A stretch of DNA of 64,000 nt from an uncultured cyanobacterium (GCA_963749915.1 CAVVOP010000008.1:96001-160000); one strand, 5' to 3'. Positions 9,843 through 40,616 are shown, numbered from the stretch's first letter. Notes: generated by a model not told the origin, from the letters alone. Translations and numbers: made by a program.

Positions 9843-9978
9843 ATTTGATAAAAAAAGTGCAGCCAAACAAAGGTATTTTTTGAGTTTTTTGTTATGGTTT
9901 ATCAATGATTTTTTGTCTAAACCTTAATTGATCATGATATAATCGCTATACATTTATGATTTCATTCTCGGATCACTT

Positions 9979-10764: not shown

Positions 10765-10943
10765 GTTTTAGCTTAGTACTATAAAGGAAAGGATGAACGG
10801 GCAAGTAACGAAGCGTTGTCGTAATGAATCAAATTCCAAATGATTCCTATATGTTATAAACATTTACGGATATATGATCCCTTAAAATATAAAGTTATAG
10901 AAAATAAAATATTATTTTTGTAATTTTTATAGATTAATTGATT

Positions 10944-21135: not shown

Positions 21136-21557
21136 TTACGCATACAGAGCGGGCTTCTCATCGACTCCAGCTATTGCTTCGGACGTTAGATGAGCTTTAA
21201 GAACGGAATGCCCTACCGCTGTGTATTTGATGTTTCTAGCTGCGTTGTGGTCACGGTCAAGAGAACATCCGCAATTTGACTGATTCGAGACTTTCAGATG
21301 TACCTTAGGGACTCGTTTGATCGCTTTCTTGCGACGATTTGAGCCTTTCTTTTTGCGTGACAGTGAACGCTGTAACCGCTTCAGTCGTTTCTCTGATTTG
21401 CGGTAGTGATGTGGGATTGCTACCTCTTTTCCGGAATCATCTACCAGAAATGATTTCAGCCCCATATCAATGCCGATCGTGTTTTCCCTCCTTGGAGCCT
21501 CAGGGGTGAGAACAGGTACACAGGCATCTTCAAGGCTTAAGGTCACATACCATCCGT
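21136..21557 (-). pseudogene. tnpB: TnpB remnant
   Basis: IGIDMGL (RuvC-I), LQRSLSRKKKGSNRRKKA, then a jump to CGCSLDRDHNAARNI. RuvC-II and most of the Zn finger are deleted. Confidence 0.88.
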
Positions 21558-21559
21558 CA

Positions 21560-21784
21560 ATTCATTTGCTGTTTCAGTACTACCCACAAATGGACTTATC
21601 CAAATTCGTCAATAACATCAAATCTGTATCTAGCCGTCGAATTAGAAGTGAGTTCGCCGATCATCTCAACAGCATTTATGGGAAAGATGTGCTTTGGAAT
21701 GAGTTGTATTTCATTGCCTCCTGTGGCGGTGTTACCGTCTCAGTTTTGCGTCAGTACATTGAAAATCAGAACCTGCCTGACTAG
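21560..21784 (+). pseudogene. tnpA: IS200-type TnpA (Y1) C-terminal remnant
   Basis: IHLL, KSVSSR, LWNELYFIASCGG and YIENQ. The N-terminus is missing. Confidence 0.85.
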
Positions 21785-24104: not shown

Positions 24105-26234
24105 TCAAGAATCCCAAAAGGTATCTACTTGATATTCTTCTATCTCCGCTTGTAAATCTTGGAAATAGTCACTTTCAGTAATTTTAGCTAGTTCTTCTGC
24201 CCGTTTTTGCTCATCGATTTCAATTTTTAATTCTGCTAATTGTCGTTGTATTTCTTGTTCTTTGAGTTTGCGCTCAGTAATATCTTGAATAATGCCTTCA
24301 AAATAGAGAATTTCACCATGACTATCCTTAACAATACGACTATCTTCTTCTACCCAGATGATACTGCCATCCTTACGATAGGCCTTATATTCCCCATCTT
24401 TTACTTGTCCTTCTTCAAGTAAACGGCGTTTAAATTCTTCTCGATCTTGAGGATTAAGATGAATCTGTTTACCAATATCGGAAATACTCGCAATCATTTC
24501 TTCGGGAGAATCATAACTATAAATTCTGGCCATAGCAGGATTGACCTTGAGATAATGTCCATCAAGGGAGGATTGAAAAATTCCTTCTAAGGCGTTTTCA
24601 AATATACTGCGGTAATTTTCCTCAGCAATACGCAGGGCTTCTTGTGCTCGTTTGCGATCGCTGATATCGAAAATTGCACCATCTAGGGAGACTAAACGAT
24701 CCTCATGGTCAAAAATACCCCTACCTTGTTCAGAAACCCAACGAATCTCACCTTTGTGATTAATGATGCGGTATTCAATCGTATAAAAGTTTTGATTACT
24801 TATTGCTTGATTAATAATCTTTTGCACTAACTCAACATCTTCAGAGTGGATAATACTAGCATAAGTGCGAACTTGGTTATGAATAAAATCTGATGCTGGA
24901 TAACCGGAAATATCAGTTATGGTTGCACTAATAAAATCCATAGTCCAATCGGCATCAAATTGACAACGATAAATTGCACCCGGGATATTCTCTACTAGAG
25001 TTCTAAAACGTTTTTCACTTTGTTCTAGTTTACGATAGGACAAAATTAAATTGAGCCAGAGAACATTGCCAATACTAATTACCGCAGCAGTTACTAAAGC
25101 TAACAAAGGGGTAAATAGAGGTACTAACCAACCAGAGAGAAAACTAAGGTAGGAAACAATAACAATAGTAATTGCAGTGATCAATAAGCTAGTAATCGTC
25201 AGCCAAGCTCGGCGTAGATAAAATAAGCTAATACTGCTACTAATTACTGCCCAAAAGAAGATTAAACCCCAATTAAAATACTTAGGAATTGCCCTGAGTA
25301 AAGGGCGACCGCTGATGGCAGCCCGAAGAATTTGACTGGCAATATTACTATGGATGACAACGCCAGGAACTAACTCTTTATTAGTAAACAGGGTATTGTT
25401 GGCGGGAGTTAGATAATTATCATTCAAACTAGGGGCTATTGGTCCTAATAACACGATGCGATCGCGCATTAAATCTTCGGGAATCCGATTTTCTAAGACA
25501 TCAGTCATAGAAATATGAAGAAAATGTTCTAATCCCCCTTGGTAATTAATCAAGATCTGATAACCTCCCATATCTTCTTGATTGTATTCCCCATCATGTT
25601 TTGATAATGGTACAAATTTGGCTTTTCCTAACCCGTAAATTTGTTGTTTTTGATTAATAGCTTCTAATTCAATATTTTCTCCTTGGAGATAGCTTAACGC
25701 CATTTTGACTCCTAACCCTAAAATGTTACTACCATCATCTTTTTTCAGTAAAACCGTACCACGTCGAATTTTGCCATCGTGATCTATAAATAAATCATTA
25801 GCGGCAACTTGTCCATGTTCTGCCAGGATAGGAGAAGGGGCAATCTGATTTCCGGCTACTTTTTGGACACCAAACAGATTGGGGCTATTTTCAAAAACTT
25901 TTACTAATTCTTGGTATCCAGGCTCAACGGGTAAATCCCGATAAATATCAATACCGATCACTCTCGGTTGTTGGGCTTGAATATTTTTAATAATTTGAGC
26001 CATCACGGCATCAGCCATGGGCCACTGTTTGACATGTTGAATATCTGTCTCGTCAATAGTAACAATAACAATACGCTGATCAACCCCTTCTTGAGGACGT
26101 AACTGGAAAAATTGATCTAAAGCTGCCCATTCTAAAATCCGAAACAGACCTATATAACTTCCGGCAATCAACAAACCAGAAACACAGGAACTAATTAGCA
26201 AAATATTTTTCAATTTTACAAAGTTATTAATCAT
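24105..26234 (-). CDS. CHASE2-TM-PAS-PAS membrane sensor with a short charged C-terminal tail and no enzymatic output domain
   Basis: RIVIVTIDE, WP, IGIDIYRD and PGVVIH (CHASE2); three TM segments; two PAS/PAC domains ending DISDRKRA and DITERK; about 50-aa tail. Confidence 0.88.
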   Translation of the reverse strand: MINNFVKLKNILLISSCVSGLLIAGSYIGLFRILEWAALDQFFQLRPQEGVDQRIVIVTIDETDIQHVKQWPMADAVMAQIIKNIQAQQPRVIGIDIYRDLPVEPGYQELVKVFENSPNLFGVQKVAGNQIAPSPILAEHGQVAANDLFIDHDGKIRRGTVLLKKDDGSNILGLGVKMALSYLQGENIELEAINQKQQIYGLGKAKFVPLSKHDGEYNQEDMGGYQILINYQGGLEHFLHISMTDVLENRIPEDLMRDRIVLLGPIAPSLNDNYLTPANNTLFTNKELVPGVVIHSNIASQILRAAISGRPLLRAIPKYFNWGLIFFWAVISSSISLFYLRRAWLTITSLLITAITIVIVSYLSFLSGWLVPLFTPLLALVTAAVISIGNVLWLNLILSYRKLEQSEKRFRTLVENIPGAIYRCQFDADWTMDFISATITDISGYPASDFIHNQVRTYASIIHSEDVELVQKIINQAISNQNFYTIEYRIINHKGEIRWVSEQGRGIFDHEDRLVSLDGAIFDISDRKRAQEALRIAEENYRSIFENALEGIFQSSLDGHYLKVNPAMARIYSYDSPEEMIASISDIGKQIHLNPQDREEFKRRLLEEGQVKDGEYKAYRKDGSIIWVEEDSRIVKDSHGEILYFEGIIQDITERKLKEQEIQRQLAELKIEIDEQKRAEELAKITESDYFQDLQAEIEEYQVDTFWDS

Positions 26235-26311
26235 TTCATCTACTTATCAGATAACTTCTACATTTAAATTTGATAATTCAACCCTAATCTTGACTGATTT
26301 CTGGCACAAAT

Positions 26312-27418
26312 CTAATTTTTCAGAAATTCTCCATATCCCATCACCTGTAATAACTTAATTTTGGCTTCATCTAATGCTTGTTGACTAGCTGGGAAATAGC
26401 CCACTTTGGTAATTTCCTCATTAACATGGGTCAGATAATAGTTAATAAATGCGGCTACTTGCGGTTTATTTTGAATAGTTTGAGGGTCTGAGTAGATAAA
26501 TAAAGGACGAGATAGAGGATAACTATGATTTTCTACGGTTTTAATATTGGGTTCAACTTTATTAATTGTCAGCAATTTAAGAGTATCTTGATAATTTTGA
26601 TAGTAAGCATAGCCAAAAAAAGCGATCGCATATTTATTATTACTAACTCCCTGAACTAATTCCTCATCATCAGCACTATATTTTGTGTGGGGAGTATGCA
26701 AAATTTTTTCTAAATTACCAGCAAATATCTGTTCCCCAAAAAAATCTAAAGTTCCTGAATCAAGATCAGGGACAAAACGTTGAATAACTTCATCGGGAAA
26801 CTTCGGATCAACATCTGACCATTTTTCCACTGTAAAAATTTTTGCTAGTTGTTCGAAGGTGACGTTTTTCAGAAAATCATTGTCAGGATGTACTACTATA
26901 GCTAAAGTGTCTGTACCAACTCGAAAGGCGATTGGTTGGCGTCCAATTTTAGCACAAGCTTCAAGTTCTTTAGTTTTAATGAGACGACTAGCGTTGGTTA
27001 CATCTAATTTTTTTTGTTGACAAAATAAGCGAAAACCACCCCCTGAACCAATACTATCAATTTGAGCTATTCCTGAGTAGCCATCACTAATAAAGCGTTG
27101 ATAAATTGCTTTGGTTAAGGGATAAACTGTGGAACTGCCGGCAACTAGCAAATTACCCTCAATTTCTAAAGGATTAATTTGTGGTAAAACAATCCCTAGA
27201 TTCTCTTTAGTTTGTGGTTTAGCTAATGATAAATTTAATGGCATTGAAATAATCGTATCTACATTAGCAGAGCTAGGCTCTGATTTCCAAAAAATATCTG
27301 GCATTTCTTCTTTTTTGAGTTGATCTTGTTGTTGTGGGTGGGAGGAAGTATGGGAGCAAGCAGTAACTATAAAAGTTATAGTAATCAGAACTAAATAATA
27401 AGAAAATCTTAATTTCAT
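26312..27418 (-). CDS. PstS-family substrate-binding lipoprotein
   Basis: Lipobox VTAC, GSSTVYP, GSGGGF, NASR, SGT and YPLSRPLFIY. Confidence 0.88.
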   Translation of the reverse strand: MKLRFSYYLVLITITFIVTACSHTSSHPQQQDQLKKEEMPDIFWKSEPSSANVDTIISMPLNLSLAKPQTKENLGIVLPQINPLEIEGNLLVAGSSTVYPLTKAIYQRFISDGYSGIAQIDSIGSGGGFRLFCQQKKLDVTNASRLIKTKELEACAKIGRQPIAFRVGTDTLAIVVHPDNDFLKNVTFEQLAKIFTVEKWSDVDPKFPDEVIQRFVPDLDSGTLDFFGEQIFAGNLEKILHTPHTKYSADDEELVQGVSNNKYAIAFFGYAYYQNYQDTLKLLTINKVEPNIKTVENHSYPLSRPLFIYSDPQTIQNKPQVAAFINYYLTHVNEEITKVGYFPASQQALDEAKIKLLQVMGYGEFLKN

Positions 27419-28899
27419 AAATCGACACTTAATTTGCCATTTCTGAATATTTCATTTTGGGGTGAGCTTTTGGCAACTCTAACCGCTTTTTGACGTTCTT
27501 CAATTAAATAGTTAATTTCTAAAGCTAATTTAGGATGCGTCATAATTAAATTGAGAGCAATATCAGCTTCAATCATAATTACCTGTGCGTCTTTAAGAAC
27601 AGTAACATAAAAATAACTAGGTTCTCCTTGTAAAAAAACGGTTTCACCAAATATATCTCCTGTGCTTAATCTGATAATTTCCTGTTCATCACCCTCGATA
27701 TCATTGAGCCATAACTTGACTTCCCCGCGCATAATTAAGTAAAAACCTGAAGCTGGTTTCCCGCTTTCAATAATCGTTTCGCCCATACCATAGTTAAGGA
27801 TAGTAGCCTGGTGAGCTAATTTAGGGATCTCATCATCATTTAAGAAATAAAAATATGGTAAAGAGCGTAAATAATTACTAATTGTTTCAAAAAGTAGAGC
27901 TTGTTCCTTTGCAACCTTATCATAAGGGACGTTATACTGCAATTGAATCGGTAGCGGTATTGTCAAACCTTGACGTTTAGCAGTATAGTAAATATTACTC
28001 ATTAAGTGATTATGAATATCCTCTACTTGCCGATAATTTTTCGTATAAAACTTTATTTCATAACTGATACTACAATCATTGTAGGATTTAGTCCTAATCT
28101 CAGGCTCAGGATCCCTGAGAATACCTTCAACTTTTAAGGCTATTTGTTTGAGTATATCTTTGACATAGTTAGGAGGATCGTCATAGGAAAATTGTACCAA
28201 AGCTTTTTCGGCATGGATAGGATCAATTAGAGTAAAATTATTAATGATATCTTTACCCAAAATTCCATTAGGAATTACGACAATATCTCGATCTCTGGTT
28301 TTGAGGCGTACCGCACGCCAATTAATTTCAATGACTTCTCCTTCCATACCCTGAACCAGAATCCAGTCCCCCACTTTAAAGGGACTTTCAAAAAGCAAAA
28401 GAAATCCTGAAACCAAGTTACTCAGCGTATCCTGTAGAGCTAAAGCAATAACTAATGAGCCTACCCCAAGAGCGGTTATTAATTGACTTAAATCGATCTG
28501 CCAAACACTACTTAAAATTTGAGCAGTTGCCCCTAAAACCATCACAGCACGAGCAGTATGAAAAAAGAGATTAGGTATGGCAATTTGCCAACTATATTTT
28601 TTAACTGTACAAGTAAAAATAACATTAAAAAAATCGAGAACTGTATAGATAACTATCAACCAAAATAAGGTTTCAATGGTTTGTAGGTATTTAGAGTTTT
28701 CAGAAACTTCAAAAACTTTTCTGAATAAAATCAAAATAGCTACACAAGGTACAAGCAAAAAACGCAAACTATGAAAACAATTAGCCAAAGGATTAGATTT
28801 TTTATTGAGACGTTCGACAATTTCTCCTAAAATAATTGTGATTAAGGGTAGGCCCAAGATTAAAATTAGACTCCATTTCCCAATTGATGTTGTTAACAA
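27415..28899 (-). CDS. MscS-family channel with C-terminal cyclic-nucleotide-binding domain
   Basis: ALQDTLSNLVSG, PFKVGDWI and INWRA; C-terminal FYLIMRGEV and GDIFGE. Confidence 0.92.
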   Translation of the reverse strand: MLTTSIGKWSLILILGLPLITIILGEIVERLNKKSNPLANCFHSLRFLLVPCVAILILFRKVFEVSENSKYLQTIETLFWLIVIYTVLDFFNVIFTCTVKKYSWQIAIPNLFFHTARAVMVLGATAQILSSVWQIDLSQLITALGVGSLVIALALQDTLSNLVSGFLLLFESPFKVGDWILVQGMEGEVIEINWRAVRLKTRDRDIVVIPNGILGKDIINNFTLIDPIHAEKALVQFSYDDPPNYVKDILKQIALKVEGILRDPEPEIRTKSYNDCSISYEIKFYTKNYRQVEDIHNHLMSNIYYTAKRQGLTIPLPIQLQYNVPYDKVAKEQALLFETISNYLRSLPYFYFLNDDEIPKLAHQATILNYGMGETIIESGKPASGFYLIMRGEVKLWLNDIEGDEQEIIRLSTGDIFGETVFLQGEPSYFYVTVLKDAQVIMIEADIALNLIMTHPKLALEINYLIEERQKAVRVAKSSPQNEIFRNGKLSVDL

Positions 28900-28920
28900 T
28901 GGTAATTTCTCCTTAATAAT

Positions 28921-31116
28921 TTACTCAAGATTAAAATCATCATTATCTAAATCAAAACTTAGATCTGCAATTAAATCTTTTAACCATTTTCTCTTCAATA
29001 CCCAAGTTTTGATCAGACCTTGATCTAAATAATTGATAGTTTTACCTAATTCAAAATCATAGGAATCCTGGAGACGCTCATGTAAGTTTTCACTCAGCAC
29101 TATGGTATTGTGTTCAGCTTCATTCATCAGCTTATGGGTAATGCTAACTGTATCACCCCACAGATTATAAACAAATCTATCATCGCCAATAATCCCTGTC
29201 ATTACTGAACCAGTATGTAAACCAATCCTAATACTTAGTGTCGTACCATGTTTATGGTTAAAGTCATCAATAACCCCTAAGCTATCTAAAGCAAAATCAA
29301 CGAGACGTTTCCCATAATCAAGACGTGGTTTGTTAAGCCCACAAACAGCAATATAAATTTCTCCTAATAACTTTAATCTTTCAACATCATATTTAGCTGC
29401 TTTTTGGTCAAGACTACTAATTAATTCACCAAGAATATGATTTAATTGATGACCATTAAAATGTTGATGTAAATGATTAATTCCCGTAATGTTAGCAAAC
29501 ATTATACTTGCTTGTTGCACATAATCAATAATACCATTTTCTCCTTTACGAAAACGTTTAACAAAAGAACTAGGCATTAAGTTTAATAATAGAGTTTGGT
29601 TTTCTTGTTGTTGTTGTTTTAGTAGTTCTGCTTGTTGCTTAATTTTCCCTCTAATCTGATTGACAATTTTTGCTAAATCACTAAATTCGTCGTGAGATTC
29701 AATCCTAATTTCTTGTTCCCAATTATCAGGATTAATATCTTGAGAACTTTTAATAATAGTTTTAATTGGTTGACTGAAATGGTTAGCAAAAGTATTAGCT
29801 AAATAAGTAATTAACAAAATCAAGAGAATAGTAATAATTAGGAGATACTTTTGTAGAACATATACAGGTTGATATGCTTGTGCTAAACTCATTTCCGCAA
29901 TAATTGTCCAATTAAGCCCTGGAATTGCCAGTGGCCCGTAGGAACTTAATACTTTAATGCCACGATAATTGTCAATGATTTTAGTCCCGCTATTACCGGC
30001 GATCGCTTCTTGGACAGCTTCAGTATTAACTTTTTGTAACAAAATATTTGTTTGTAATTGCCTAATTAAATTAATGGTACTTTTTGGAACGTTGTTGGAG
30101 TTTAAAGATTGCTCATAAGCAGTAGCATTTTCGACGAATAAGCGTGATGCTGAGCGCATGAGTAAATCTTGTGTCCCAACTAAATAGGTTTCTCCTGTTT
30201 CTCCTAACCCGTTTTCTTGCCAATTATTATTATTTGTTAATATCTGATTAATTTCAGTTACGGGTAATTGAATTGCCAGAATGCCAACAAAATGTGGCCC
30301 ATTATAAATAGGTGCAGCTATAAATGCGGCAGGCTGCATCAAGGAAGGATAATAAGGCTTAAAATCAACGAGGTAGGATCTACCTCGACGAGGATTTTCT
30401 CGAACTTTTTTGACAACTTCCGCGAGATTACTATTCTGATAAACTCCATCATCTAAGTTAGTAGCAAAATCAGGTTGTTTGGAGACAGAATAGACAATAT
30501 CACCGGTTTGATGGTTAATTAAAAATAAGTCGGAGTAACCAAATTTAGCGACTAGACTCCGAAAAAATGGATGATATTTGCTATGATACTTTCTATATAA
30601 ACTACCATCCTCTGTGTCGATTAATTGTTCTTTTTGACCCACAGGATTGGGATTTTTAGCAATATATTGATATTGTAAATAGTTAGCGGCTTGGGAGCGC
30701 GGACGATATATTTCCCACGTTGGCTGATTAACTGTTGTTTTCTCCAATTTTGACAAAAATTCTGCTTCATAATATTTGAAGATTTCTTGATCCCAGTCTT
30801 GAGGAAGCAACTGGTCTTGGGGAAGCAACTGCTGATCTAAAACACGAAAACTCTGATTTAATTCCACCATGGCTGCTACTACTGTCCGAGTTTCACTTAT
30901 AGTCTCGATCTGGTGGCTCAAATTACTAAAATAGGATTCAATTTGAAATGCTTTAGAGGTGCGATCGCTCGTTAATTGTTGAAAAATTTGATTCTTAATA
31001 GATTCTTTACTCTGACTACAACTGAGATAGCCGACTATGGCAATTGAGCCTAAGCTGATGGAGAGCAAAATTACCATCAGTTGCGATTTAATAGTTAGTC
31101 GATTCAAACCGAACAT
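28921..31116 (-). CDS. Cache-HAMP class III nucleotidyl cyclase-like protein, catalytically degenerate
   Basis: TM, periplasmic Cache-like region (GLGETGETYLVG), TM, HAMP-like segment, cyclase fold (RIGLHTG, WGDTV) with substituted catalytic residues. Confidence 0.88.
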   Translation of the reverse strand: MFGLNRLTIKSQLMVILLSISLGSIAIVGYLSCSQSKESIKNQIFQQLTSDRTSKAFQIESYFSNLSHQIETISETRTVVAAMVELNQSFRVLDQQLLPQDQLLPQDWDQEIFKYYEAEFLSKLEKTTVNQPTWEIYRPRSQAANYLQYQYIAKNPNPVGQKEQLIDTEDGSLYRKYHSKYHPFFRSLVAKFGYSDLFLINHQTGDIVYSVSKQPDFATNLDDGVYQNSNLAEVVKKVRENPRRGRSYLVDFKPYYPSLMQPAAFIAAPIYNGPHFVGILAIQLPVTEINQILTNNNNWQENGLGETGETYLVGTQDLLMRSASRLFVENATAYEQSLNSNNVPKSTINLIRQLQTNILLQKVNTEAVQEAIAGNSGTKIIDNYRGIKVLSSYGPLAIPGLNWTIIAEMSLAQAYQPVYVLQKYLLIITILLILLITYLANTFANHFSQPIKTIIKSSQDINPDNWEQEIRIESHDEFSDLAKIVNQIRGKIKQQAELLKQQQQENQTLLLNLMPSSFVKRFRKGENGIIDYVQQASIMFANITGINHLHQHFNGHQLNHILGELISSLDQKAAKYDVERLKLLGEIYIAVCGLNKPRLDYGKRLVDFALDSLGVIDDFNHKHGTTLSIRIGLHTGSVMTGIIGDDRFVYNLWGDTVSITHKLMNEAEHNTIVLSENLHERLQDSYDFELGKTINYLDQGLIKTWVLKRKWLKDLIADLSFDLDNDDFNLE

Positions 31117-31261
31117 AAACTCTTTTCAAAAGAACAAAATGCCAGGAAAGATCTTAACTCAAAAATACTAGTAAAACTGCCACATTCCATGTTAAAAGAA
31201 TCCTATTGTGATCACAGTTTTTCAGCCATTGAAAAACACTTATTGTTGAGTATATCTGAAA

Positions 31262-32608
31262 TTAGTGCAATCTAACCAAAGGTTCATCGGAAAGTTTTTC
31301 TAGATCAACCTGTTCTAATAAATCATGCCATTCCATAATATAAGTCTGATTATCAGGTTCAGCAAGCTTTGCTTCTGCTAAAACTTTCAAAGTATCGTAC
31401 CAAATCCCCATTTTTCCATACTCAGTGGCTAATTTTACAGGAGAATCAGCTAATTGTTGGGAATTAACATTTGATTCGACCCGCTTAATCCATCCTGTCA
31501 CTGCATAGTTATTTGGTTTCAGTCTTCCTCCCGCTTCGATAGGTGCAAAGTACCAAAGGTAATATTGATCTTTAACTAAAGGTGCTATTTCTGGAGGTAA
31601 GGTCACCATGATCATTCCTCCCTGGCGAGGAACTTGTAATATGGTATAATAATGAGGATTACCATCTTCATCTTGCAGACTAAAGAAAACTTTTTGTGTT
31701 CCTAAAGGTGGCAAATAGGCAAATATAGTTGGATGGGCTAAAGTAGTACGCCCATTATTGGTGGAAGGGAGAATTGCTCTAAGTACTGGACTCTCAAGTC
31801 TTGGTGCTACATTAAGATTAGGATTTGATTGGTCATTTGGGATCGTAAGCTCAACATCCCCCCTAGAACCACTACCCACACTGCTATTAGGGTTAGAAGC
31901 ATCCCCAGGAAGCCCAAATTGTACATCCCCTCTGGAACCACCACCCACACTGCTATTAGGGTTAGAACTATCCCCAGGAAGTCCAAATTGTACATCCCCT
32001 CTGGAACCACCACCCACACTGCTATTAGGGTTAGAACTATCCTCAGGGAGTCCAAATTGAACACTACCTCTAGAACCACCACCCACACTGCTATTAGGGT
32101 TAGAAGCATCCCCAGGGAGTCCAAATTGTACATCCCCTCTGGAACCACCACCCACACTGCTATTAGGGTTAGAAGCATCCTCAGGGAGTCCAAATTGTAC
32201 ATCCCCTCTGGAACCACCACCCACACTGCTATTAGGGTTAGAAGCATCCTCAGGGAGTCCAAATTGTACATCCCCTCTAGAACCACCACCAATGCTGCTA
32301 TTAGGGTTAGAACTATCCCCAGGGAGTCCAAATTGTACATCCCCTCTGGAACCACCACCAATGCTGCTGTTAGGGTTAGAACTATCCTCAGGGAGTCCAA
32401 ATTGAACACTACCTCTAGAACCACCACCAATGCTGCTGTTAGGGTTTTTATCGTCAGGCAGGCTAAATTCTACTAAGGTAATTAGCTGATTTTTGCTTAA
32501 ATTATCAATTTTATATCTATTAGTAGTAGCTAATGTGATCTGAGAAGGCAGGAACATCATACTAACAATAATGCTAGATATTGAAATTGGAGTAATAACT
32601 TGACACAT
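31262..32608 (-). CDS. Exported DUF928 protein with an N-terminal 23-aa tandem repeat array
   Basis: Hydrophobic N-terminus; C-terminal GRTTLAHPTIFAYLP, YLWYF, GWIKRV, GIWYDTL and WHDLLEQV are typical of DUF928. Confidence 0.88.
   Translation of the reverse strand: MCQVITPISISSIIVSMMFLPSQITLATTNRYKIDNLSKNQLITLVEFSLPDDKNPNSSIGGGSRGSVQFGLPEDSSNPNSSIGGGSRGDVQFGLPGDSSNPNSSIGGGSRGDVQFGLPEDASNPNSSVGGGSRGDVQFGLPEDASNPNSSVGGGSRGDVQFGLPGDASNPNSSVGGGSRGSVQFGLPEDSSNPNSSVGGGSRGDVQFGLPGDSSNPNSSVGGGSRGDVQFGLPGDASNPNSSVGSGSRGDVELTIPNDQSNPNLNVAPRLESPVLRAILPSTNNGRTTLAHPTIFAYLPPLGTQKVFFSLQDEDGNPHYYTILQVPRQGGMIMVTLPPEIAPLVKDQYYLWYFAPIEAGGRLKPNNYAVTGWIKRVESNVNSQQLADSPVKLATEYGKMGIWYDTLKVLAEAKLAEPDNQTYIMEWHDLLEQVDLEKLSDEPLVRLH
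31853..32470 (-). repeat. 69-bp coding tandem repeat, 8 full units plus 1 partial
   Basis: Unit QFGLP[EG]D[SA]SNPNSS[IV]G[GS]GSRG[DS]V, near-identical at DNA level. Confidence 0.97.
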
Positions 32609-32677
32609 ATTTTAATTGACCTATATAAATAACTTTATTTGTGAAAAAAAGGATAATTTTTAAATTCCGTACTTTAT

Positions 32678-33367
32678 TTAATCCTCATTCCTAACTCTAG
32701 AACCGCCACCCAAACTGCTCTTAGGGTTAGAGCCATCCCCAGGAACTTGAAATTGAACATCATCGCCTCTAGAACCACCACCCAAACTTTCATTAGGGGC
32801 TGCAGGGGGGAGTGCTAATTCGGTACTTTGTTTCATAATCGGAGCCTCTTTCAGATAGTTATTAATTGAGACAACATATTTTCCTTCTGGATCCCCTTTT
32901 ATAGAAGTACCGCCAACCTGAACAGCATTGCTAAACAAATTTTGTAAAACCTGATCAGGATTATCCTCAGGTTGTAAGGTAATCAATAAGCTATCTTCTG
33001 TACACTCATAACCTTGACCAGCTTTCTTTCCTTGACTAACACAAATTACTTTTTGTTTATTGATTACACTTGTGGTAACATCTCCAAGAGTACCATTATC
33101 AGAAAACTTCTGAAATCGAGCCGTTACTTCTTCACATTGTGCTTGGGGAGTCCAGCCTGAACCTCTAAAATAATCACTTTTCCACACAATCAACTCAATT
33201 CTACCTCTTTGAGTATCTACTATTGTGGTGGGAACGCCGTTATTATTGATACAGCTATAAATATTTTTAGTGGCTTGAGCCTGAGTTGGTTTAGATACAA
33301 AAAAGTAACTAACACTGGTGATTACTAGGCTTGAAGCTAATATTTTGCCAATAAAATGATTCTTCAT
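32678..33367 (-). CDS. Exported COP23-domain protein with a GGGSR-repeat tail
   Basis: Signal peptide ending PTQA, LIVWKSDYF, GWTPQAQCEEVTARFQ, VIC and LLITL. Tail has two GGGSR motifs. Confidence 0.85.
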   Translation of the reverse strand: MKNHFIGKILASSLVITSVSYFFVSKPTQAQATKNIYSCINNNGVPTTIVDTQRGRIELIVWKSDYFRGSGWTPQAQCEEVTARFQKFSDNGTLGDVTTSVINKQKVICVSQGKKAGQGYECTEDSLLITLQPEDNPDQVLQNLFSNAVQVGGTSIKGDPEGKYVVSINNYLKEAPIMKQSTELALPPAAPNESLGGGSRGDDVQFQVPGDGSNPKSSLGGGSRVRNED

Positions 33368-33746
33368 AATCTTTACTCCTGGTCGTTTTGTAGCTTAAGA
33401 GCAATATAAGATGATTGATTATTCAATATATATTAAGGTTCATTTGGTTAAACTTAGGCAATTATGATGATTGCCTTCTATTTCTCTCTAGTCAGGATAA
33501 ATAAAACAGAGCAATTAGCTGATTTTTGGTAACTACCGAGGTCGTCAAATTTTGGGAAAAAACAATGACTTCTTGTTTAAGTATATCTTTCAGGCCCTCT
33601 AACCTGAATTATTCATGAACCAAAAACCAAAACTAAAAAAGCACAAAAGGACAATTTTTAAAGATAATTACCTCTACTCTAACACCTAATCCTTAGCCTC
33701 TGCCTTAATCTTAAGCTTATGATTATCTTGCCAATTTTTATTAAGA

Positions 33747-35309
33747 CTCATCGTTCGCTTAAATAAAATCAGATAACTGACAAAAAAAGGTTAAAATCTG
33801 GACTGGATAAAGCATTAAGCAACATGGAGTCAAAAGATTATTCCACAAATCCAGTCAGAACGAGTAGATGATTTACCATTAATTATCTATTGGCTAACAC
33901 AAATGAATATTGCCGCAATCATCGATGAAAATTTATTGACACCTCATGGTAATCGCAAAGGATTAAGTTATGGTCAACTAGCTGTATTATTACTCACGTA
34001 TATTATCAGTGAAGCAGACCATCGCCTTTGTTGTCTAGAAAAATGGGTTAATGACCATCATCACAGTCTTTCAGCCATAACAGGATGGAACATAGCCGAA
34101 AAAGATGCTACAGATGACCGTTGCGGAGACTTGTTAAAAACCATTGGAATTAGTGGTGAGCAAAGCATTCCTACGATGGAAACATCCCTATCGAAGCATT
34201 TAATCAAAGCTTATGAATTACCAACCCAAAAAGCCCGAAGCGATACTACAAGTTTTGCGGTATATCATCAAACATCAGAAACAGAGCAAGAATCATCTTT
34301 GATAAAATTCGGTTACAGTAAAGATAAACGACCAGATTTACAACAATATCGTCAAATGTTGGGTACATTAGATCCCTGTGGAATGCCATTAGTGGGTGCG
34401 ACTTTAGCTGGTAATGGCACAATCGGGCAAAAATCAATGAAGAGGGAGGAATCTATTGTTTCCCGTCGTTTACTCAAAGGGGAAAAAGCTTTAGCTACCT
34501 TAGCACAGCGACCTGGAAATGAGGAGCAAGTATTATGTAGGAAAGTAGAAGAGATACTAAAAAGCAATCGGATTCTCAAAATACATGGAATATTCAATCG
34601 AAAAAAAGATGAGTTATGACAAGGTGTATCAAGGATTTGGAAATCGTTCTGAATCGTCATCGCTTTGAGGGTGTTTACCCTGATGGAATTTGTAGTTCGC
34701 CGTGAATTACATCAATCTCAATCAAGTTTAGCAGGTCTTTATGATGGTAATCCTAAACGCAGTACTAATCGTCCCACCGCCGAAAAATTATTACGGGCTT
34801 TCTGTAACATAAATTTATATAGACATCGAGATGGTTCGCAAGAAATATCGGCATTGAATATGTTGCAAAAACAGATATTAAGTTTGATGAAAGTACCAGA
34901 GTATATTTATACTAACTTAGCCAGTGATTCGGGTTAAACTACAGTGAAATACGCAGATGGGCAATCAAAGAGGAAATGATTAGCGTATTTTAGACAATAA
35001 TAAAAAAGGGAAAAATAATTAAATTGGAGGAAAATCCCAATACATTTCTCCTGCCCACAAAAAAACTTCATGTTGAGTCAATCAATCTCCTTTTATTGTA
35101 GTATTGATTACACTAACTGATTTTTGTGGTGTAGCCCAAGTCTGATAATTTTTATTTTTGAGAGTAAGTTATAGTATCAAAATCGCTAACAAAAATCATC
35201 TCCCCTACCTTCTATACTTCGTTGCTACTTTTTTGGCTAAAATCCTTATCTATTAAACATTTGAAGTTATTTTTCAAATTTTTACTTTTTCAAATAAGCG
35301 AACAATGAG
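33747..35309 (+). mobile_element. IS1634-family element, internally deleted, with intact ends
   Basis: TIRs CTCATCGTTCGCTTA and TAAGCGAACAATGAG; 6-bp TSD TTAAGA at 33741-33746 and 35310-35315. Confidence 0.85.
33823..34937 (+). pseudogene. IS1634-family transposase, frameshifted and deleted
   Basis: ERVDDLPL, SDTTS, FGYSKDKRPDL and GLYDGNPKRSTNRPTAEKLL, spread over different frames with the middle missing. Confidence 0.85.
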
Positions 35310-35370
35310 TTAAGATTGTCGATCAGAAATGGTAACATGGGAACCGAAACACAGCACAAATCATCCCACT

Positions 35371-35600
35371 ATGAATAAAAAATTAACCATTACTCTTGAT
35401 GAAAAAATCTATGATGGGCTTCATAGAATTGTTAGTCAGGATGCTGTTAGTTAGTTTATCGAAGATTTGTTGCGGCCCTATGTTATAAAAGAAGATCTAG
35501 AAGTTGCTTATCAGCAGATGGCGATGGATGAGGAGAGGGGAAGGACTGCCCTAGAATGGTCTGAGGCTATGATTGGAGACGTTGGCGATGAAACAAACGT
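35371..35600 (+). pseudogene. Antitoxin of a MazF/PemK module, nonsense-mutated
   Basis: MNKKLTITLDEKIYDGLHRIVSQDAVS*FIEDLLRP..ALEWSEAMIGD, with in-frame TAG at 35452-35454. Confidence 0.75.
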
Positions 35601-35838
35601 GGTGAGGTTCGGTGGGTTAATTTTGAGCCTTCTATTGGTGGGGAAATAAGAAAAAGAAGACCTGCTATCATTGTCAGTAATGATATCGCTAATAGAAATC
35701 TTAATCGAGTTCAAGTATTACCTGTTACAAGTAATGTAGCCCGTGTTTATCCTCGTGATGCCCTTGTGGTTATAAATGACCGTCAAGGAAAGGCAATGGC
35801 TGATCAGTTAACCACGGTGTCGAAGTTTATGTATTAAC
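35588..35838 (+). pseudogene. mazF: MazF/PemK toxin, frameshifted and truncated
   Basis: Removing one AAAC of ATG-AAAC-AAAC-GT gives MKRGEVRWVNFEPSIGGEIRKRRPAIIVSND..PVTS..MADQLTTVSK, which then stops early. Confidence 0.85.
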
Positions 35839-35973
35839 GTAAATATGTTGTTTCAGGCTTTTGGAGGTCGCTTTTGATAGCTGGCGATCGCCAAAATATG
35901 ATTGAAAAATCTAGCCACAAGCCTTGAAAAATATACCTGTTATTTCGGCTTTTCTGTCAATGCGTAAGTCCTA
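35821..35973. repeat. MITE/REP-like element ending TGCGTAAGTCCTA
   Basis: The right end matches a common cyanobacterial TAGGACTTACGCA-type terminus and the left end is degenerate. It coincides with the mazF truncation. Confidence 0.45.
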
Positions 35974-36010
35974 ATCTTAATTTAACTTGAGTTAAATCTG
36001 AACATTTAAT

Positions 36011-38647
36011 TTATAGCCAATTACCAATAAGAACAAAAGATGACCAGAAATAGGGATGTTTATGAACCGGATTTCGCATAACTCGAATTTGTGCTTGTCT
36101 TAAGGCTTCTGCTTTACTAATTTTCCCAGTTGCTAATTGTTGATAAAAGGCGATCATTAGTTCTGATGTGGCCTCATCGCTAACAGGCCACAAACTACCC
36201 AAGGTACTTCTTGCACCAGATCGCAGAGCAAATCCAGCCAAACCCAGGGTCGCACGATCGTCCCCTTCTGCGGTTTGACAGGCACTCATTACCAATAGTT
36301 CAATCGGTTTAAGGATACCGACCCTCCTTTTTTGAAAGAGAAGATCAAAGTCTTGGAGCGAAATGCGATCGCTCCACGTCAAAAGGAAAGTCTCGTCGGG
36401 GTTAGAACTAAATTGTCCGTGAGTAGCAAGGTGAACAATGGAGAAATCTTGATTATTGAGGGCTATGGTAAAACTATCATGGGTAAAATTCTGATTAAGT
36501 AACACTTCAGGGGTGTTAACTTCTTGGGATATTTCCTCAATTTCAGCGGCTACTCCAGGTAACGCATTAAATCCCTGGCGTGCTTCGGTTAAACCCACAG
36601 CTAACATACTCAAGTCTTGTCTTTGTAATCCCTGGGGAAATAATTGTAAACCGGGGCTAAGGGCGATACTGAATTTTTCAATAAGATATTTATCGCCATC
36701 GAAAAGAGCAGACATCGGTATATTTCTGAGCAACCTATCGGGAATAAAAACTAAGGTTTTGATCTCATTGTTATTTAGGTCTATTTCCGCTGGTTTAATT
36801 AACCAATCATAAATTTGTTGGGAAAGCTGCCAATGTAAGTCACGCGGATAACCAGGAGAAAAAGAGGAATAAAATTCTTCAACTGTTGCTTCTACATCTT
36901 CATTAGCTAAAAAGGTAGTATAATGGCGTAATGGTTGTTTTGGTAGCGATAAAATCACCTCAAGCCTATCTTTCAAGATAATCGGATAAATAACGGCTGC
37001 TGAGGTATCAATTTCCTCAATTGCTACAGGACGAGTATCTAAACAAGCATCCCGGAAAAAGTTATCTAATTCCTCTATTTGCAATGCTTCCATTACTTCA
37101 CGGGCTTGTTTAAGATTGGTTTGAGTCACTTCTCCTTGATCTGTGGAGGGAGCTAATAATAAACTGACGTAATCTCGATAAATTGGCTCAATACTCTCTT
37201 TAAAAGAGAATTGTATATCTGAATTAATTGCGACTAAGTCACTACGGAGATTTTGAAGATTAGTAAAAGCGATGTAGTAAGCGGCGATCGCACTATCTGG
37301 CTCTCCTCTTTGTGTTAGGATCTTCCCCAACTGACTGGCTGCACGGGCTGTGATATCAACGGCATTAATCGTTTGAGCAATATCTAAACTCTGTTGTGTC
37401 AACTGTTGAGCGTCAGCCAATTCTCCAGCTTCCAGATAAACTTTCCCCAATTGATGTAAGCTATATGCTTCTGCTCTCGAATCCTGAATTTGTTTAGCTT
37501 CTTGAATTGCTTTTGCTAATATTTGGGCTGTTTTTTGATTATTGATAGCGGAAAAACTTCCACTGCTTTTGCCAACTTGGGAAATTTTAGTGAGGCTTTG
37601 TGCTAAATTAATTTCGGCGTAAATTCGAGGGCGACTAGGGGATAATTGGGCTAATTTGTCCTCAATATCAGGGATTAAATCCAGAGCAGGTTGCCATCTT
37701 TCCAATGCGACTAACATACTCAATTGATTAAGTTGTGCTTCCACTTGAGTCAGCTTATCAGGGGATAATTGAGCAGATTCTTGGTAATATGTCCAAGCTA
37801 CCCCATACTCCTCTAAATCTCTGGCAACATTACCAATGGCAAACAAAGCAGCACTAACATCCGTTGGCGATTGTAATTGTTTGCTTAGTTGCCAACTTTC
37901 TTCTAAAACTGCCTTAGATTGCTGAAGATCACCAGTAGCTTGTAGTGCTATCCCTAGACTTCTTAATCCCTGAGCTTTAATCAGATTGTCGGGTTGTTTT
38001 TGTAGTTCTGTAACTGATTGCTCTAAAATGGCTTTAGCCCTACGATACTGCCCCAAAGCTTGTAATGCTTGAGATTTATTGATATTACTAATTGATTTAC
38101 CTGTTTGATCATCATTACTTTGATAGATTTTTGCCGCTTGTTCCCAAGTATTCAAAGCTGTCTGAGTTTGTCCCTGGGATAATTGTAGTATTCCCTGAAT
38201 GTTTAATGCTTGAGCCAAAAGTAAATCACTCTTGGCATCTCGTTTTGTTTGGCTTTGGAGTAAATCAAGACTCATTGTAACCATACTTTGAGCCTTTGTT
38301 TGTTTACCCAAATCTTTATATCCTAATGCTAAATAATTAAGTGTCTGAATTTGACTAATTTTTGACCCTTGCTGCTGCTGATATTCCTCAAGTGCATTTT
38401 CCCAAACTTGAACAGCCTCAGCAAATTGTCCATTTCGGTAGTATTGTTTACCCTTTTGTAACAATTGTCTAGAATCAGATAATTCTTCTTGCCCTATTTC
38501 CTGTTGAGCTAATAAATTTAGTTCATAAGCCATAGCAGGATTAGCTTTAGCGATTAATGATACATGACATCCTAAATAACCAGATAATAGCCATGACAGT
38601 TTAGGCTTAAACTGAAAAATATTATTCAAAAATTTGGGATTATTCAT
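36011..38647 (-). CDS. TPR-CHAT (caspase-like) protease, probably exported
   Basis: TPR-like helices, ELDNFFRDAC, HLATHGQF (His), LVMSACQTA (Cys), SLWPVSD and HPYFWSSF. ATG at 38647 preferred, followed by a signal-like NPAMA. The upstream extension reads through heptamer repeats. Confidence 0.92.
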   Translation of the reverse strand: MNNPKFLNNIFQFKPKLSWLLSGYLGCHVSLIAKANPAMAYELNLLAQQEIGQEELSDSRQLLQKGKQYYRNGQFAEAVQVWENALEEYQQQQGSKISQIQTLNYLALGYKDLGKQTKAQSMVTMSLDLLQSQTKRDAKSDLLLAQALNIQGILQLSQGQTQTALNTWEQAAKIYQSNDDQTGKSISNINKSQALQALGQYRRAKAILEQSVTELQKQPDNLIKAQGLRSLGIALQATGDLQQSKAVLEESWQLSKQLQSPTDVSAALFAIGNVARDLEEYGVAWTYYQESAQLSPDKLTQVEAQLNQLSMLVALERWQPALDLIPDIEDKLAQLSPSRPRIYAEINLAQSLTKISQVGKSSGSFSAINNQKTAQILAKAIQEAKQIQDSRAEAYSLHQLGKVYLEAGELADAQQLTQQSLDIAQTINAVDITARAASQLGKILTQRGEPDSAIAAYYIAFTNLQNLRSDLVAINSDIQFSFKESIEPIYRDYVSLLLAPSTDQGEVTQTNLKQAREVMEALQIEELDNFFRDACLDTRPVAIEEIDTSAAVIYPIILKDRLEVILSLPKQPLRHYTTFLANEDVEATVEEFYSSFSPGYPRDLHWQLSQQIYDWLIKPAEIDLNNNEIKTLVFIPDRLLRNIPMSALFDGDKYLIEKFSIALSPGLQLFPQGLQRQDLSMLAVGLTEARQGFNALPGVAAEIEEISQEVNTPEVLLNQNFTHDSFTIALNNQDFSIVHLATHGQFSSNPDETFLLTWSDRISLQDFDLLFQKRRVGILKPIELLVMSACQTAEGDDRATLGLAGFALRSGARSTLGSLWPVSDEATSELMIAFYQQLATGKISKAEALRQAQIRVMRNPVHKHPYFWSSFVLIGNWL

Positions 38648-38711
38648 GGATTGGTTTTCTAGCTTAATTAATTCAGAAAATAATATTTTAATTGATTGTA
38701 TGTTGCAAATT

Positions 38712-38752
38712 CTGCCTTCTGCCCTCTGCCCTCTGCTTCCTGCCTCCTGCCT
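38712..38752. repeat. Heptamer short tandem repeat (CTGCC[CT][CT]-like)
   Basis: ctgccttctgccctctgccctctgcttcctgcctcctgcct. Confidence 0.8.
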
Positions 38753-38900
38753 TACTCTCGACCACATTGATATTTTCCAAAACCCTCGCAGTCTTGAGTT
38801 GGAATTCATCAACAGAATTGAGAAAAGGATTATTATTACTTAACCATCTCATTAGGGATAATTGGCGCCTAGAATTAATTATATTGCGATCGATTTTATT

Positions 38901-40616
38901 ATGACACAACCTGATTTTTTATCGATATTTTATGCTTTATGTCTGGTTTCAATCACTACACCAATTGCCGCTCAAACTGTTCCTCAACCAGTGCGTCCCC
39001 TATTTCCTCGACCAGTGCGTCCGTCATTTCCTCAACCAGTGCGTCCGCCATTGGAACCTTTACCGGAACCATCAACTCTACCACCTCTGGAAGACTTGCT
39101 GCCACAGTTAAAAGCACCCAGTGGTGAATCACAAACACCACAGTTAGATATTCCCGGAACAATTGTGGTTAGACAATTTGAAGTAATTGGTAGTACTATT
39201 TTTAGTCAGTCAGAACTGACAGAATTACTCAAGCCTTATACTAATCGTCCCCTTTCTTTTGCTGAACTAATGCAAGCACAAGAGGCTGTCACTCAGCTAT
39301 ATATTAACAAAGGATACATTACCACTGGCTCTTTTATTCCTCCTCAAACCCTAAAAGACGGCATAGTGAAAATTGAAGTAGTAGAGGGCTCAGTAGAGAA
39401 AATTGAGGTGAAAGGACTCAAGCGACTCCCCACCAGCTACATCACTAGCCGACTGGAGAAGGCAACTAAAGCACCCCTCAACCAAGAGAAACTCCTGGAA
39501 GCCTTACAAATGCTTCAGCTCAACCCTTTAATTGAGAGGTTATCTGCAGAACTAAGTACGGGAACTAGCCCGGGAAGGGACATTTTAACAGTGGAGATCA
39601 AGCAAGCTTCCGCCTTTGCTGCTAGTCTGAGATTTGATAATGAAAGAGTCCCCTCTGTGGGCAGTGATCGACGTATAATTGAACTCACCCACGGTAATCT
39701 CTTGGGGATTGGCGATCGCCTCAACGTCAGATACTATAACACCAATGGCTCGAACGCCTTGGACGATCTCAGTTATACCATTCCTGTTAATCCTGCCAAC
39801 GGCACTCTCAGCTTCACTTACCGCTTAATTGATAGTAGAGTTATTGAAGAACCCTTTAATGAGCTCGATTTAGAATCAGATTTTCGGCAATACTCCTTTA
39901 CCTACCGCCAACCAATTCTTCAAACTCCTAATCAAGAATTGGCCTTGGGCTTAACCTTCGACAGGCAGACATCAAATATTAATCTTTTAGATAACCTTTT
40001 AAAGGGAGAAACCAGAATTTCTGCCCTGCGTTTTTTCCAAGAATACTCTTGGCGAAGCACTCAAGACGTTTTTGCACTGCGATCGCAATTTAGTGTCGGA
40101 CTGGAAGGTTTCCAAACCACTCTCAATGCTGACAAAACTGACGAGGGATTTTTTGTTTGGCGGGGGCAAGCCCAGTATATCCGTTTACTATCACCAGGTA
40201 CTATCCTCTTGTTGAGGTCCGACTTACAACTAGCAGATCGACCCTTAATTCCTATCGAACAGTTTAGCCTAGGAGGTGCTCTTACAGTCAGGGGTTATCG
40301 TCAAGATCTTTTGCTAGCGGATAACGGGTTCTTCGCTTCAGCAGAAATACGCACTCCTATTTTGCGAATTCCCGAATGGCAGACAACTTTTCAGTTAACT
40401 CCCTTTATTGATGTTGGTACTACCTGGAATAATGATGATATCCCAGTAATACCCCGTCGAAGTCTTTATTCTGTGGGCATAGGCTTACGGGTGGAAGTTG
40501 GCAATAATTTTAATGCCCGACTAGATTGGGGTATCCCTTTAGCAGATGTAAATATAGATAAGGATACACTACAAGAAAATGGCATTTACTTCGTAATTGA
40601 ATATAAACCTTTTTAA
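38901..40616 (+). CDS. ShlB/FhaC/HecB (TpsB) two-partner-secretion outer-membrane protein
   Basis: Signal peptide, Pro-rich linker (PVRP x3), POTRA (YINKGYITTG), GGALTVRGY, and C-terminal aromatic residue. Confidence 0.93.
   Translation: MTQPDFLSIFYALCLVSITTPIAAQTVPQPVRPLFPRPVRPSFPQPVRPPLEPLPEPSTLPPLEDLLPQLKAPSGESQTPQLDIPGTIVVRQFEVIGSTIFSQSELTELLKPYTNRPLSFAELMQAQEAVTQLYINKGYITTGSFIPPQTLKDGIVKIEVVEGSVEKIEVKGLKRLPTSYITSRLEKATKAPLNQEKLLEALQMLQLNPLIERLSAELSTGTSPGRDILTVEIKQASAFAASLRFDNERVPSVGSDRRIIELTHGNLLGIGDRLNVRYYNTNGSNALDDLSYTIPVNPANGTLSFTYRLIDSRVIEEPFNELDLESDFRQYSFTYRQPILQTPNQELALGLTFDRQTSNINLLDNLLKGETRISALRFFQEYSWRSTQDVFALRSQFSVGLEGFQTTLNADKTDEGFFVWRGQAQYIRLLSPGTILLLRSDLQLADRPLIPIEQFSLGGALTVRGYRQDLLLADNGFFASAEIRTPILRIPEWQTTFQLTPFIDVGTTWNNDDIPVIPRRSLYSVGIGLRVEVGNNFNARLDWGIPLADVNIDKDTLQENGIYFVIEYKPF

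Follow-up and report, generated by a model that had tools for sequence, protein, structure and literature searches.

A conserved cyanobacterial gene cassette of a TPR-CHAT protease, a repeat-bearing DUF928 protein and a CHASE2 receptor, with a rearranged member enclosing a second module

What holds together seven genes that share the minus strand of a 64,000-nt stretch of DNA from an uncultured cyanobacterium (GCA_963749915.1 CAVVOP010000008.1:96001-160000, here called the window, from whose first letter all coordinates are counted)? They encode a TPR-CHAT protease, a COP23-family protein, a DUF928 protein containing a repeat array, a Cache-HAMP-pseudo-cyclase, an MscS channel with a cNMP-fold domain, a PstS-like protein and a CHASE2 receptor, and the original prediction joined them into one signalling system, in which CHAT would release peptides from the repeat proteins and receptors of the CHASE2 and Cache types would sense them and act on the channel. 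Our answer is that a core of three genes, in the order TPR-CHAT, repeat-DUF928 and CHASE2, is conserved, which is strongly supported and extends to the window, whose three genes belong to the core clades, and that the remaining four are later neighbours of this core. It is very probable that two unrelated modules are nested at the locus, and we are equally confident that the genes of the core act together.

Linkage and inheritance of the core genes

The repeat region retrieved 55 repeat-bearing DUF928 homologues, all of those with names being cyanobacterial, while the window's DUF928 protein, aligned with 46 homologues, led to 79 loci (from the best 80 of 133 confirmed matches), the genes of which were labelled by profiles built from the window's domains; the TpsA label agreed with Pfam TPS in all four proteins checked. 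These loci include close kin and in places several per genome, and counts taken from them are therefore not counts of independent events. The comparison set consisted of 60 general DUF928 neighbourhoods, chosen for long contigs among 150 listed matches.

A CHAT gene lies on the same strand and within 2.2 kb upstream of the repeat-DUF928 gene in 67 of the 72 repeat loci with room for it, and 64 of 73 have a CHASE2 gene no more than 0.7 kb downstream; TpsA was found in 50 of the 79 loci and TpsB in two. The general neighbourhoods contained CHASE2 in 41 cases, CHAT in 25, TpsA in 20 and TpsB in 13, and no overlooked CHAT was found among the 35 long unlabelled open reading frames scanned there (35 of 36). 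The window's own genes follow the same division, its CHAT being closer to CHATs from repeat loci (median identity 65%) than to CHATs from general DUF928 loci (47%), and its CHASE2 protein showing the same difference (60% vs 33%), with little or no preference for the repeat-locus clades shown by the other paralogues in the genome (four CHATs and two CHASE2 proteins). Pairwise identities of CHAT, DUF928 and CHASE2 correlate at 0.91-0.93 over 80 triads, among which kin are not independent, and this demonstrates inheritance as a unit rather than contact. At a wider scale, DUF928 occurs in 39 and CHAT in 48 of 121 genomes of the phylum, all 39 being among the 48, and of the 301 genomes of the order 75 yielded the repeat unit. 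The predicted link between protease, repeat protein and CHASE2 is thus borne out by gene order and clade membership, to which co-folding (below) adds weak support.

The cassette might, on the other hand, be a recently acquired and decaying island that no longer signals in this genome, a reading that we consider distinctly improbable. The repeat unit was found in none of the 19 other genomes of the window's family, no TpsA is adjacent, a recent insertion sequence (IS) lies between CHAT and DUF928, the CHAT leader is weak, the receptor has no enzyme domain, and 9 of the 102 conserved CHASE2 columns are altered (three of them by end gaps; median 3). Against decay, all eight reading frames are open, CHAT and DUF928 deviate at only 5 of 146 (median 5) and 0 of 69 (median 2) conserved columns respectively, and Arg is retained in every unit of the repeat.

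Locus L067 carries a transposon-like gene (8658-9848; family assigned by eye) between CHAT and DUF928, at the same junction as the window's IS, and in loci L107 and L134 TpsA-CHAT fusions of 2456 and 1822 aa, which would take the CHAT domain out of the cytoplasm, stand beside DUF928 genes.

The repeat unit and the protease

The array encodes nine Arg-terminated units, eight of them exact 23-mers, behind a hydrophobic leader, and thus has the form of an exported precursor with tandem short units, as known from precursor-protease-receptor signalling. The unit reads G-x-V-Q-F-G-L-P-x-D-x-S-N-P-N-S-S-[IV]-G-G-G-S-R, those of the window ending in G[GS]GSR, and the unit-end Args, conserved in all nine, are the only Args between residues 32 and 269 of the DUF928 protein; in its model the array has a low predicted local distance difference test (pLDDT) score and the DUF928 domain is confident. 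Of all units counted, 290 of 295 have Arg after xGG[STVIA], and Gly comes next in 214 of 248 distinct units, while the span from Phe to Arg measures 18-19 residues in 248 of 248 units matched, a range that the search pattern itself limits. In portable form the motif can be written F-x2-P-x4-5-P-x3-GG[GA][STV]-R, then G. General DUF928 proteins have one copy ahead of the domain in 61 of 65 cases, the frequency among background windows being 320 of 5000, and in classical DUF928 proteins it stands just before a Cys in 53 of 61.

A profile search of 1.8 billion representatives with the repeat gave 56 matches, and 36 of the 53 new ones carry DUF928; of the 17 without it, three long ones look like chance matches and a number of the short ones are perhaps truncated pieces, and for the argument on motif carriers we rely, of such proteins, only on two in locus L047 (below). 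One of the matches, P0121, is a 120-aa protein, perhaps itself a fragment, that lacks a Pfam match and ends in two repeat units in the manner of the COP23 tail. That tail, at about 32696-32824, replaces the usual CxxxxC end of COP23 with two repeat units, its DNA being some 80% identical to the DUF928 array. It was found in only one of 29 COP23 homologues, that one being 96% identical, and most of the others end in CxxxxC; COP23 itself occurs in none of the 79 repeat loci and in one of the 60 general loci, also when a profile of 28 homologues is used. COP23 is a locally recruited gene that has picked up two repeat units, and its candidacy as a regular CHAT substrate was rejected on the rarity of the tail. 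Between CHAT and DUF928 in L047 there are two small leader-bearing genes on the plus strand (9920-10387 and 10377-10838) that have the repeat motif and acidic tails, and that gave no DUF928 domain and no Pfam match. Together with the COP23 tail they show that the motif can move without the DUF928 domain. Other short genes that have a leader and an [ST]RGC motif lie between CHAT and CHASE2 genes at G000 C21:775428-775859 and C4:27582-28145; when the two were searched together, they gave at most a faint score with the DUF928 profile (E 8e-4 and 0.018).

The DUF928 domain itself has an Ig-like and helical fold like that of the C-terminal domain of MtxA (PDB 4Z29), as found by Foldseek (E 1.6e-4) and by structural alignment (Z 10.3, root-mean-square deviation 3.8, 147 aligned residues, 11% identity; next row Z 7.4), and Atlas gave it a lead of 0.77, 14-15% of members bearing MtxA families. 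In magnetotactic bacteria mtxA is followed by a CHASE2 cyclase gene (PMC4439547; here and below, citations refer to individual passages of the papers), so that a signal-peptide protein of this fold is again encoded beside a CHASE2 receptor. The N-terminal part of MtxA differs in being a predicted beta region rather than Arg-ended repeats, and no protease is mentioned in those passages (PMC4439547). In one Nostoc, DUF928 has been noted next to genes for CHASE2 and WD40 proteins (PMC5587647).

As had been predicted, CHAT keeps both catalytic motifs, HLATHG with His798 and SAC with Cys845, and also has Asp879 (numbering of the 933-aa frame); His and Cys are invariant in 55 of 55 aligned sequences. 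Its model (pLDDT 84.8) matches Csx29 (E 1.1e-16), DdvA (E 2.9e-10) and separase 5FC2 (E 8.1e-9), which places it in the caspase/separase fold; PDB sequence searches gave no CHAT or CHASE2 relative. Leaders were judged by our own hydropathy score with a threshold of 1.8, not by SignalP. The signal-like N-termini predicted for CHAT, COP23 and DUF928 were upheld for DUF928 (2.26), COP23 reached 1.79, and CHAT, at 1.5, fell below the threshold. Of 68 full-length CHATs, a set that contains the window's, 62 have a hydrophobic leader, as compared with none of 68 internal stretches and 326 of the genome's 1019 long open reading frames; the window's DUF928 protein and 57 of 77 of its relatives have one too, which is consistent with export of both CHAT and DUF928. 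Our scan of the window's CHAT revealed no transmembrane segment. A periplasmic TPR-CHAT protein is known in DdvA of Myxococcus xanthus, which likewise has a His-Cys dyad and is proposed to start a signal by proteolysis; DdvA differs in being a membrane-anchored anti-sigma factor that is proposed to cut itself (PMC11506125). The CHAT described here has as its linked partners a repeat protein encoded apart from it and a CHASE2 receptor, and Pfam and NCBIfam scans of the window found no anti-sigma domain of the DdvA type.

With respect to specificity, the Asp of the CHAT LWxVxD motif, which may be the equivalent of separase D2151, is invariant in 55 of 55 sequences. In separase D2151 reads the P1 Arg, and Lys occupies this position in the Leu-cutting craspase (PMC9729208). 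HetF of Anabaena PCC 7120, another cyanobacterial CHAT protease with one specific substrate, PatU3, cleaves after Arg117; it differs in having a membrane helix and periplasmic TPRs, its cut triggers the degradation of an inhibitor, and neither a repeat precursor nor CHASE2 figures in the passages on it (PMC9457339). The CHAT of the core is probably Arg-specific, and whether it cuts the repeat at R|G is, in our estimation, evenly balanced.

A comparable small-residue-Arg-Gly site, T-G-R-G-G, is found near the C-terminus in 54 of 70 linked TpsA proteins. It lies in a cysteine-flanked context, C-x6-8-F-x-[IV]TGRGG[LV]P (for instance in L009:4049-7114), and is a candidate CHAT site.

That the TpsA site is retained would also suit a different role for the repeat motif, as a docking element, bait or securin-like inhibitor for TPR-CHAT, in which case what CHASE2 senses would be the DUF928 domain in its folded form, or CHAT, or a fragment of TpsA. 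CHAT proteases are held inactive until activation (PMC11506125), and the position of the motif directly before Cys in classical DUF928 proteins would fit such a role as well. The absence of CHAT from 35 of 60 general DUF928 neighbourhoods speaks against it, as does the weak co-folding support for CHASE2 with the repeat, and we regard it as quite unlikely.

The CHASE2 receptor and the proposed signal

When the CHASE2 domain was co-folded with residues 44-88 of the DUF928 protein, comprising two repeats, a score of 0.59 was obtained vs 0.00 for the best control, which supports binding weakly. The mark used was attained by 116 of the 157 solved pairs and by 2 of the 215 mismatched ones; scores of 0.60 or below account for just 18 of the former and for both of the latter. 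Agreement of contacts between runs is at least 0%, and the pLDDT of the partner is at least 48. As one Arg of the fragment is internal and the other terminal, and contacts are not given, co-folding is compatible with either a free or a tethered ligand. Binding of the motif to CHASE2 in one of these two forms is, in our judgement, slightly more probable than its opposite.

If the ligand is tethered, uncut repeats would bind CHASE2 multivalently, fixing or clustering one state of the receptor, and a cut by CHAT would remove the ligand and leave the peptides as waste. The closer coupling of DUF928 to CHASE2 (41 of 60) than to CHAT (25 of 60) in general loci agrees with this, and so does the MtxA-like fold that adjoins a CHASE2 cyclase in magnetotactic bacteria (PMC4439547). 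A releasable unit better fits both the persistence of the motif on carriers without DUF928 and the nearly constant unit length, as far as the pattern-limited Phe-to-Arg range allows this to be judged; a tethered ligand therefore seems to us rather unlikely.

We propose that the conserved cassette, normally TpsA, TPR-CHAT, repeat-DUF928 and CHASE2 receptor in this order, serves envelope signalling in cyanobacteria. CHAT and DUF928 would be exported, CHAT would cut after Arg (GGGSR|G), and the freed peptides of 22-23 residues would bind the CHASE2 domain and switch the output of the receptor, tandem copies increasing the dose per precursor; the TGR|GG site of TpsA is perhaps a second substrate, which would couple the signal to adhesin export. 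As to the output, 65 relatives of the receptor comprise 33 SpoIIE phosphatases, 16 kinase-receiver-cyclase hybrids, 10 kinases and six cyclases, the SpoIIE phosphatase being followed by slr1658/slr1659 genes in the one case scanned. The last PAS domain and the tail of the window's receptor have counterparts of 55-61% identity in genes of their own in the vicinity of three related cassettes. The tail, LxIEIDxxKR...ITxSDYF, follows the PAS domain at 24105-24230 (minus strand) in the window and recurs in L020:15078-16661, L039:5591-6865 and L078:11541-13097; it has no Pfam name.

Several observations weigh against this proposal. The window's receptor has two PAS domains and a tail in which no enzyme domain was found, an output type present in 0 of 65 relatives, and the slr1658/slr1659 partners had no blastp match in the window's genome. 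Direct binding of a peptide is also not the only route to a CHASE2 receptor, since the CHASE2 cyclases of Sinorhizobium meliloti answer a protein signal by way of the outer-membrane receptor NsrA (PMC13001267, PMC7529298). The CHAT leader lies under the threshold, CHAT accompanies general DUF928 genes less often than CHASE2 does, and in the window 2643 bp, holding an IS1634 remnant and mazEF pieces on the plus strand, separate CHAT from COP23. Nor did the motif predict the neighbours: 47 of 61 DUF928 genes with it and three of four without it have CHAT or CHASE2 nearby, so that a rule by which only motif-bearing copies would do so, which had fitted two copies in the genome, was discarded. The acidic residue at the position of separase Glu917, presumably corresponding to IPMSAL in the window's CHAT, seems to be replaced. 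Glu917 has been proposed as a second acidic S1 residue of separase (PMC4626109), and other CHATs cleave after Leu or Met (PMC11506125, PMC9729208).

With these points taken into account, the whole chain of export, cutting, peptide binding to CHASE2 and switching of the output is put forward tentatively, at somewhat less than an even chance. More doubtful still is its most general form, in which an undescribed and widespread peptide signalling of cyanobacteria would use an exported separase-like protease to cut a polyprotein after GGG[STV]R, the resulting 22-23-residue peptides would be the CHASE2 ligands, the protease would also trim the TpsA adhesin, and the motif would be a graftable tag, grafted here on COP23; through the one copy that ordinary DUF928 proteins carry, such signalling would also reach many other CHASE2 receptors of the phylum.

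The logic resembles that of yeast alpha-factor and of Gram-positive ComC/ComD, in which a secreted precursor, a dedicated protease and a membrane receptor, with tandem copies and basic ends, are combined; the likeness is one of logic only. Other systems share single features with the cassette. In the EACC2-caspase-CHASE2 system a caspase-fold domain and CHASE2 also occur together in a cyanobacterial-type arrangement, but the caspase is fused N-terminally to the receptor, with an extracytoplasmic function sigma factor and DUF1822 as neighbours (PMC8195603), whereas in the window a leader-bearing protease is encoded apart from the receptor, and the CHASE2 domain begins at residue 21, leaving no N-terminal caspase fusion. 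A neighbourhood resembling the EACC2 type by eye lies at G000 C22:118579-127266, with a sigma-like gene, a 355-aa gene, a long CHASE2 protein, DUF928 and a convergent CHAT. CyaD1, CyaD2 and CyaK of S. meliloti, together with NsrA, show that CHASE2 receptors can answer a protein or peptide signal, which differs in coming from the plant and passing through an outer-membrane barrel, and the passages on it describe no self-made precursor or protease (PMC13001267, PMC7529298). No account of the cassette was found in a literature search for CHAT domain, CHASE2 and cyanobacteria, subscription journals and supplements being outside its reach. The cassette is widespread and apparently undescribed, and apparently works like peptide-precursor signalling, the window holding a rearranged member of it.

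No direct CHASE2 ligand is named in the passages on CHASE2 consulted, and few CHAT proteases have a known substrate; the cassette offers one short, synthesizable candidate for both. If the proposal is correct, it would represent a caspase-fold, multi-copy peptide route in Gram-negative phototrophs that feeds phosphatases, kinases and cyclases. The family matters more in this respect than the window's locus, a rearranged copy with a non-catalytic receptor, the special contribution of which is the COP23 graft as evidence that the motif can move.

The second module and the layout of the locus

The Cache-cyclase family and PstS are absent from all 79 repeat loci. MscS-cNMP genes occur within 10 kb of three of them, in convergent orientation, and in one of the 60 general DUF928 loci; any MscS gene was found near 11 of the 79, eight being of the type without a cNMP domain, all in Nostoc-like records and not taken as evidence for a link. 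The Cache-cyclase was also surveyed in its own right, in 12 genome regions (12 of 13 matches) and 80 metagenome loci (the best 80 of 177, 34 of them at least 12 kb long). MscS-cNMP directly follows the cyclase in 10 of the 12 genome regions, the other two stopping at a contig edge, and of the metagenome loci with room 44 of 51 have MscS after the cyclase. PstS is present in two of 12 and four of 80 cyclase loci, DUF928 in none and one, CHASE2 in none and two, and CHAT in one and one.

The pseudo-cyclase has N542, E586, S658 and K662 at the D, D, N and R positions of class III cyclases. We take the canonical set for these positions to be two metal-binding Asp and the transition-state Asn and Arg, as also seen in the intact cyclase of L045. 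The cNMP pocket of the window's MscS reads FGETVFLQGEPS and lacks what we presume to be the Arg of the phosphate-binding cassette, which is found in one of 44 relatives. The combination of MscS and a cNMP fold is the common architecture of bCNG channels, from which the window's channel differs in this pocket and in its pairing with a dead cyclase. With neither catalytic residues in the cyclase nor the Arg in the pocket, the cyclic-nucleotide step fails. Cache-pseudo-cyclase and MscS-cNMP are a separate, recurring receptor-channel pair, unlikely to use cyclic AMP and probably acting by direct protein contact; the pair, sometimes with PstS, is inserted between DUF928 and CHASE2 and is independent of the core.

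A single seven-gene system, in which peptides from DUF928 and COP23 would be sensed by CHASE2 and Cache and would gate the cNMP-domain channel, is accordingly highly unlikely. The close packing of six genes on one strand, the motif gained by COP23, the few MscS-cNMP genes near DUF928 loci and the loss of the usual output by the window's CHASE2 receptor, which could have been rewired, would speak for it; the counts for COP23, Cache-cyclase and PstS in repeat loci, those for DUF928, CHASE2 and CHAT in cyclase loci, and the degenerate cyclase and pocket all point the other way. The predicted sensing of peptides by the Cache receptor, with action on the channel, found no link.

The gene set, order and strands, the IS1634 remnant, the dead mazEF locus and the divergent TpsB gene were all as predicted, according to Pfam and NCBIfam scans and coordinates (Table 1).

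Table 1. Features of the locus, in window coordinates
Feature	Position	Strand	Basis
TPR-CHAT caspase-fold protease, core gene 1	36011..38647	-	Pfam CHAT E 2.5e-62 and TPR; likely start ATG at 38647
COP23-family secreted protein, repeat-tailed, lineage-specific	32678..33367	-	PF14218
DUF928 secreted protein, core gene 2 (signal-like leader, repeat array, Ig-like and helical domain)	31262..32608	-	PF06051 E 1.5e-41
Repeat array inside the DUF928 gene	31862..32479	-	69-bp period, 8.6 copies, 92%
dCache-HAMP-pseudo-cyclase, second module	28921..31116	-	Pfam; Cache match 25.9 bits, under Pfam cut-off 45
MscS channel with cNMP-fold domain, second module	27415..28899	-	Pfam
PstS-like solute-binding lipoprotein, occasional third gene of second module	26312..27418	-	TIGR02136 205 bits, cut-off 206.6
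CHASE2-PAS-PAS membrane receptor with coiled tail, core gene 3	24105..26234	-	Pfam
IS1634 remnant, recent insertion	33746..35310 (latter end approximate)	+	NF033559 E 8e-26
Broken mazEF-like locus	35371..35837	+	PemK E 9e-18, matching positions 1-83 of 109
TpsB, POTRA and ShlB barrel, divergent	38862..40616	+	Pfam

From COP23 to CHASE2 the six genes are separated by 69, 145, 21, -4 and 77 bp. The putative antitoxin frame of the mazEF locus is interrupted by a stop, and other genomic copies of the IS1634 remnant are 95-100% identical to it. Eight RNA runs contained 5-8% of the words; in the four of them that were mapped, coverage lay mainly over the IS. Contig ends fall at 33746 and 35310. Promoter (57 vs 58.8) and terminator (10 vs 12.5) scans were at chance level. 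A search of the flanking genes by Pfam and locus labels found no TPS domain beside TpsB, which thus lacks the adjacent TpsA passenger of a two-partner secretion locus, and TpsA-like genes, as read by eye, are present elsewhere in the genome. TpsB is directly followed on the plus strand by a gene for an SdrD-B repeat / DUF11 / RTX protein (40967-43645) and then by a split ISAzo13-type transposase (43769-44985), and small transposase-like remnants, recognised by eye, lie at 21136-21784.

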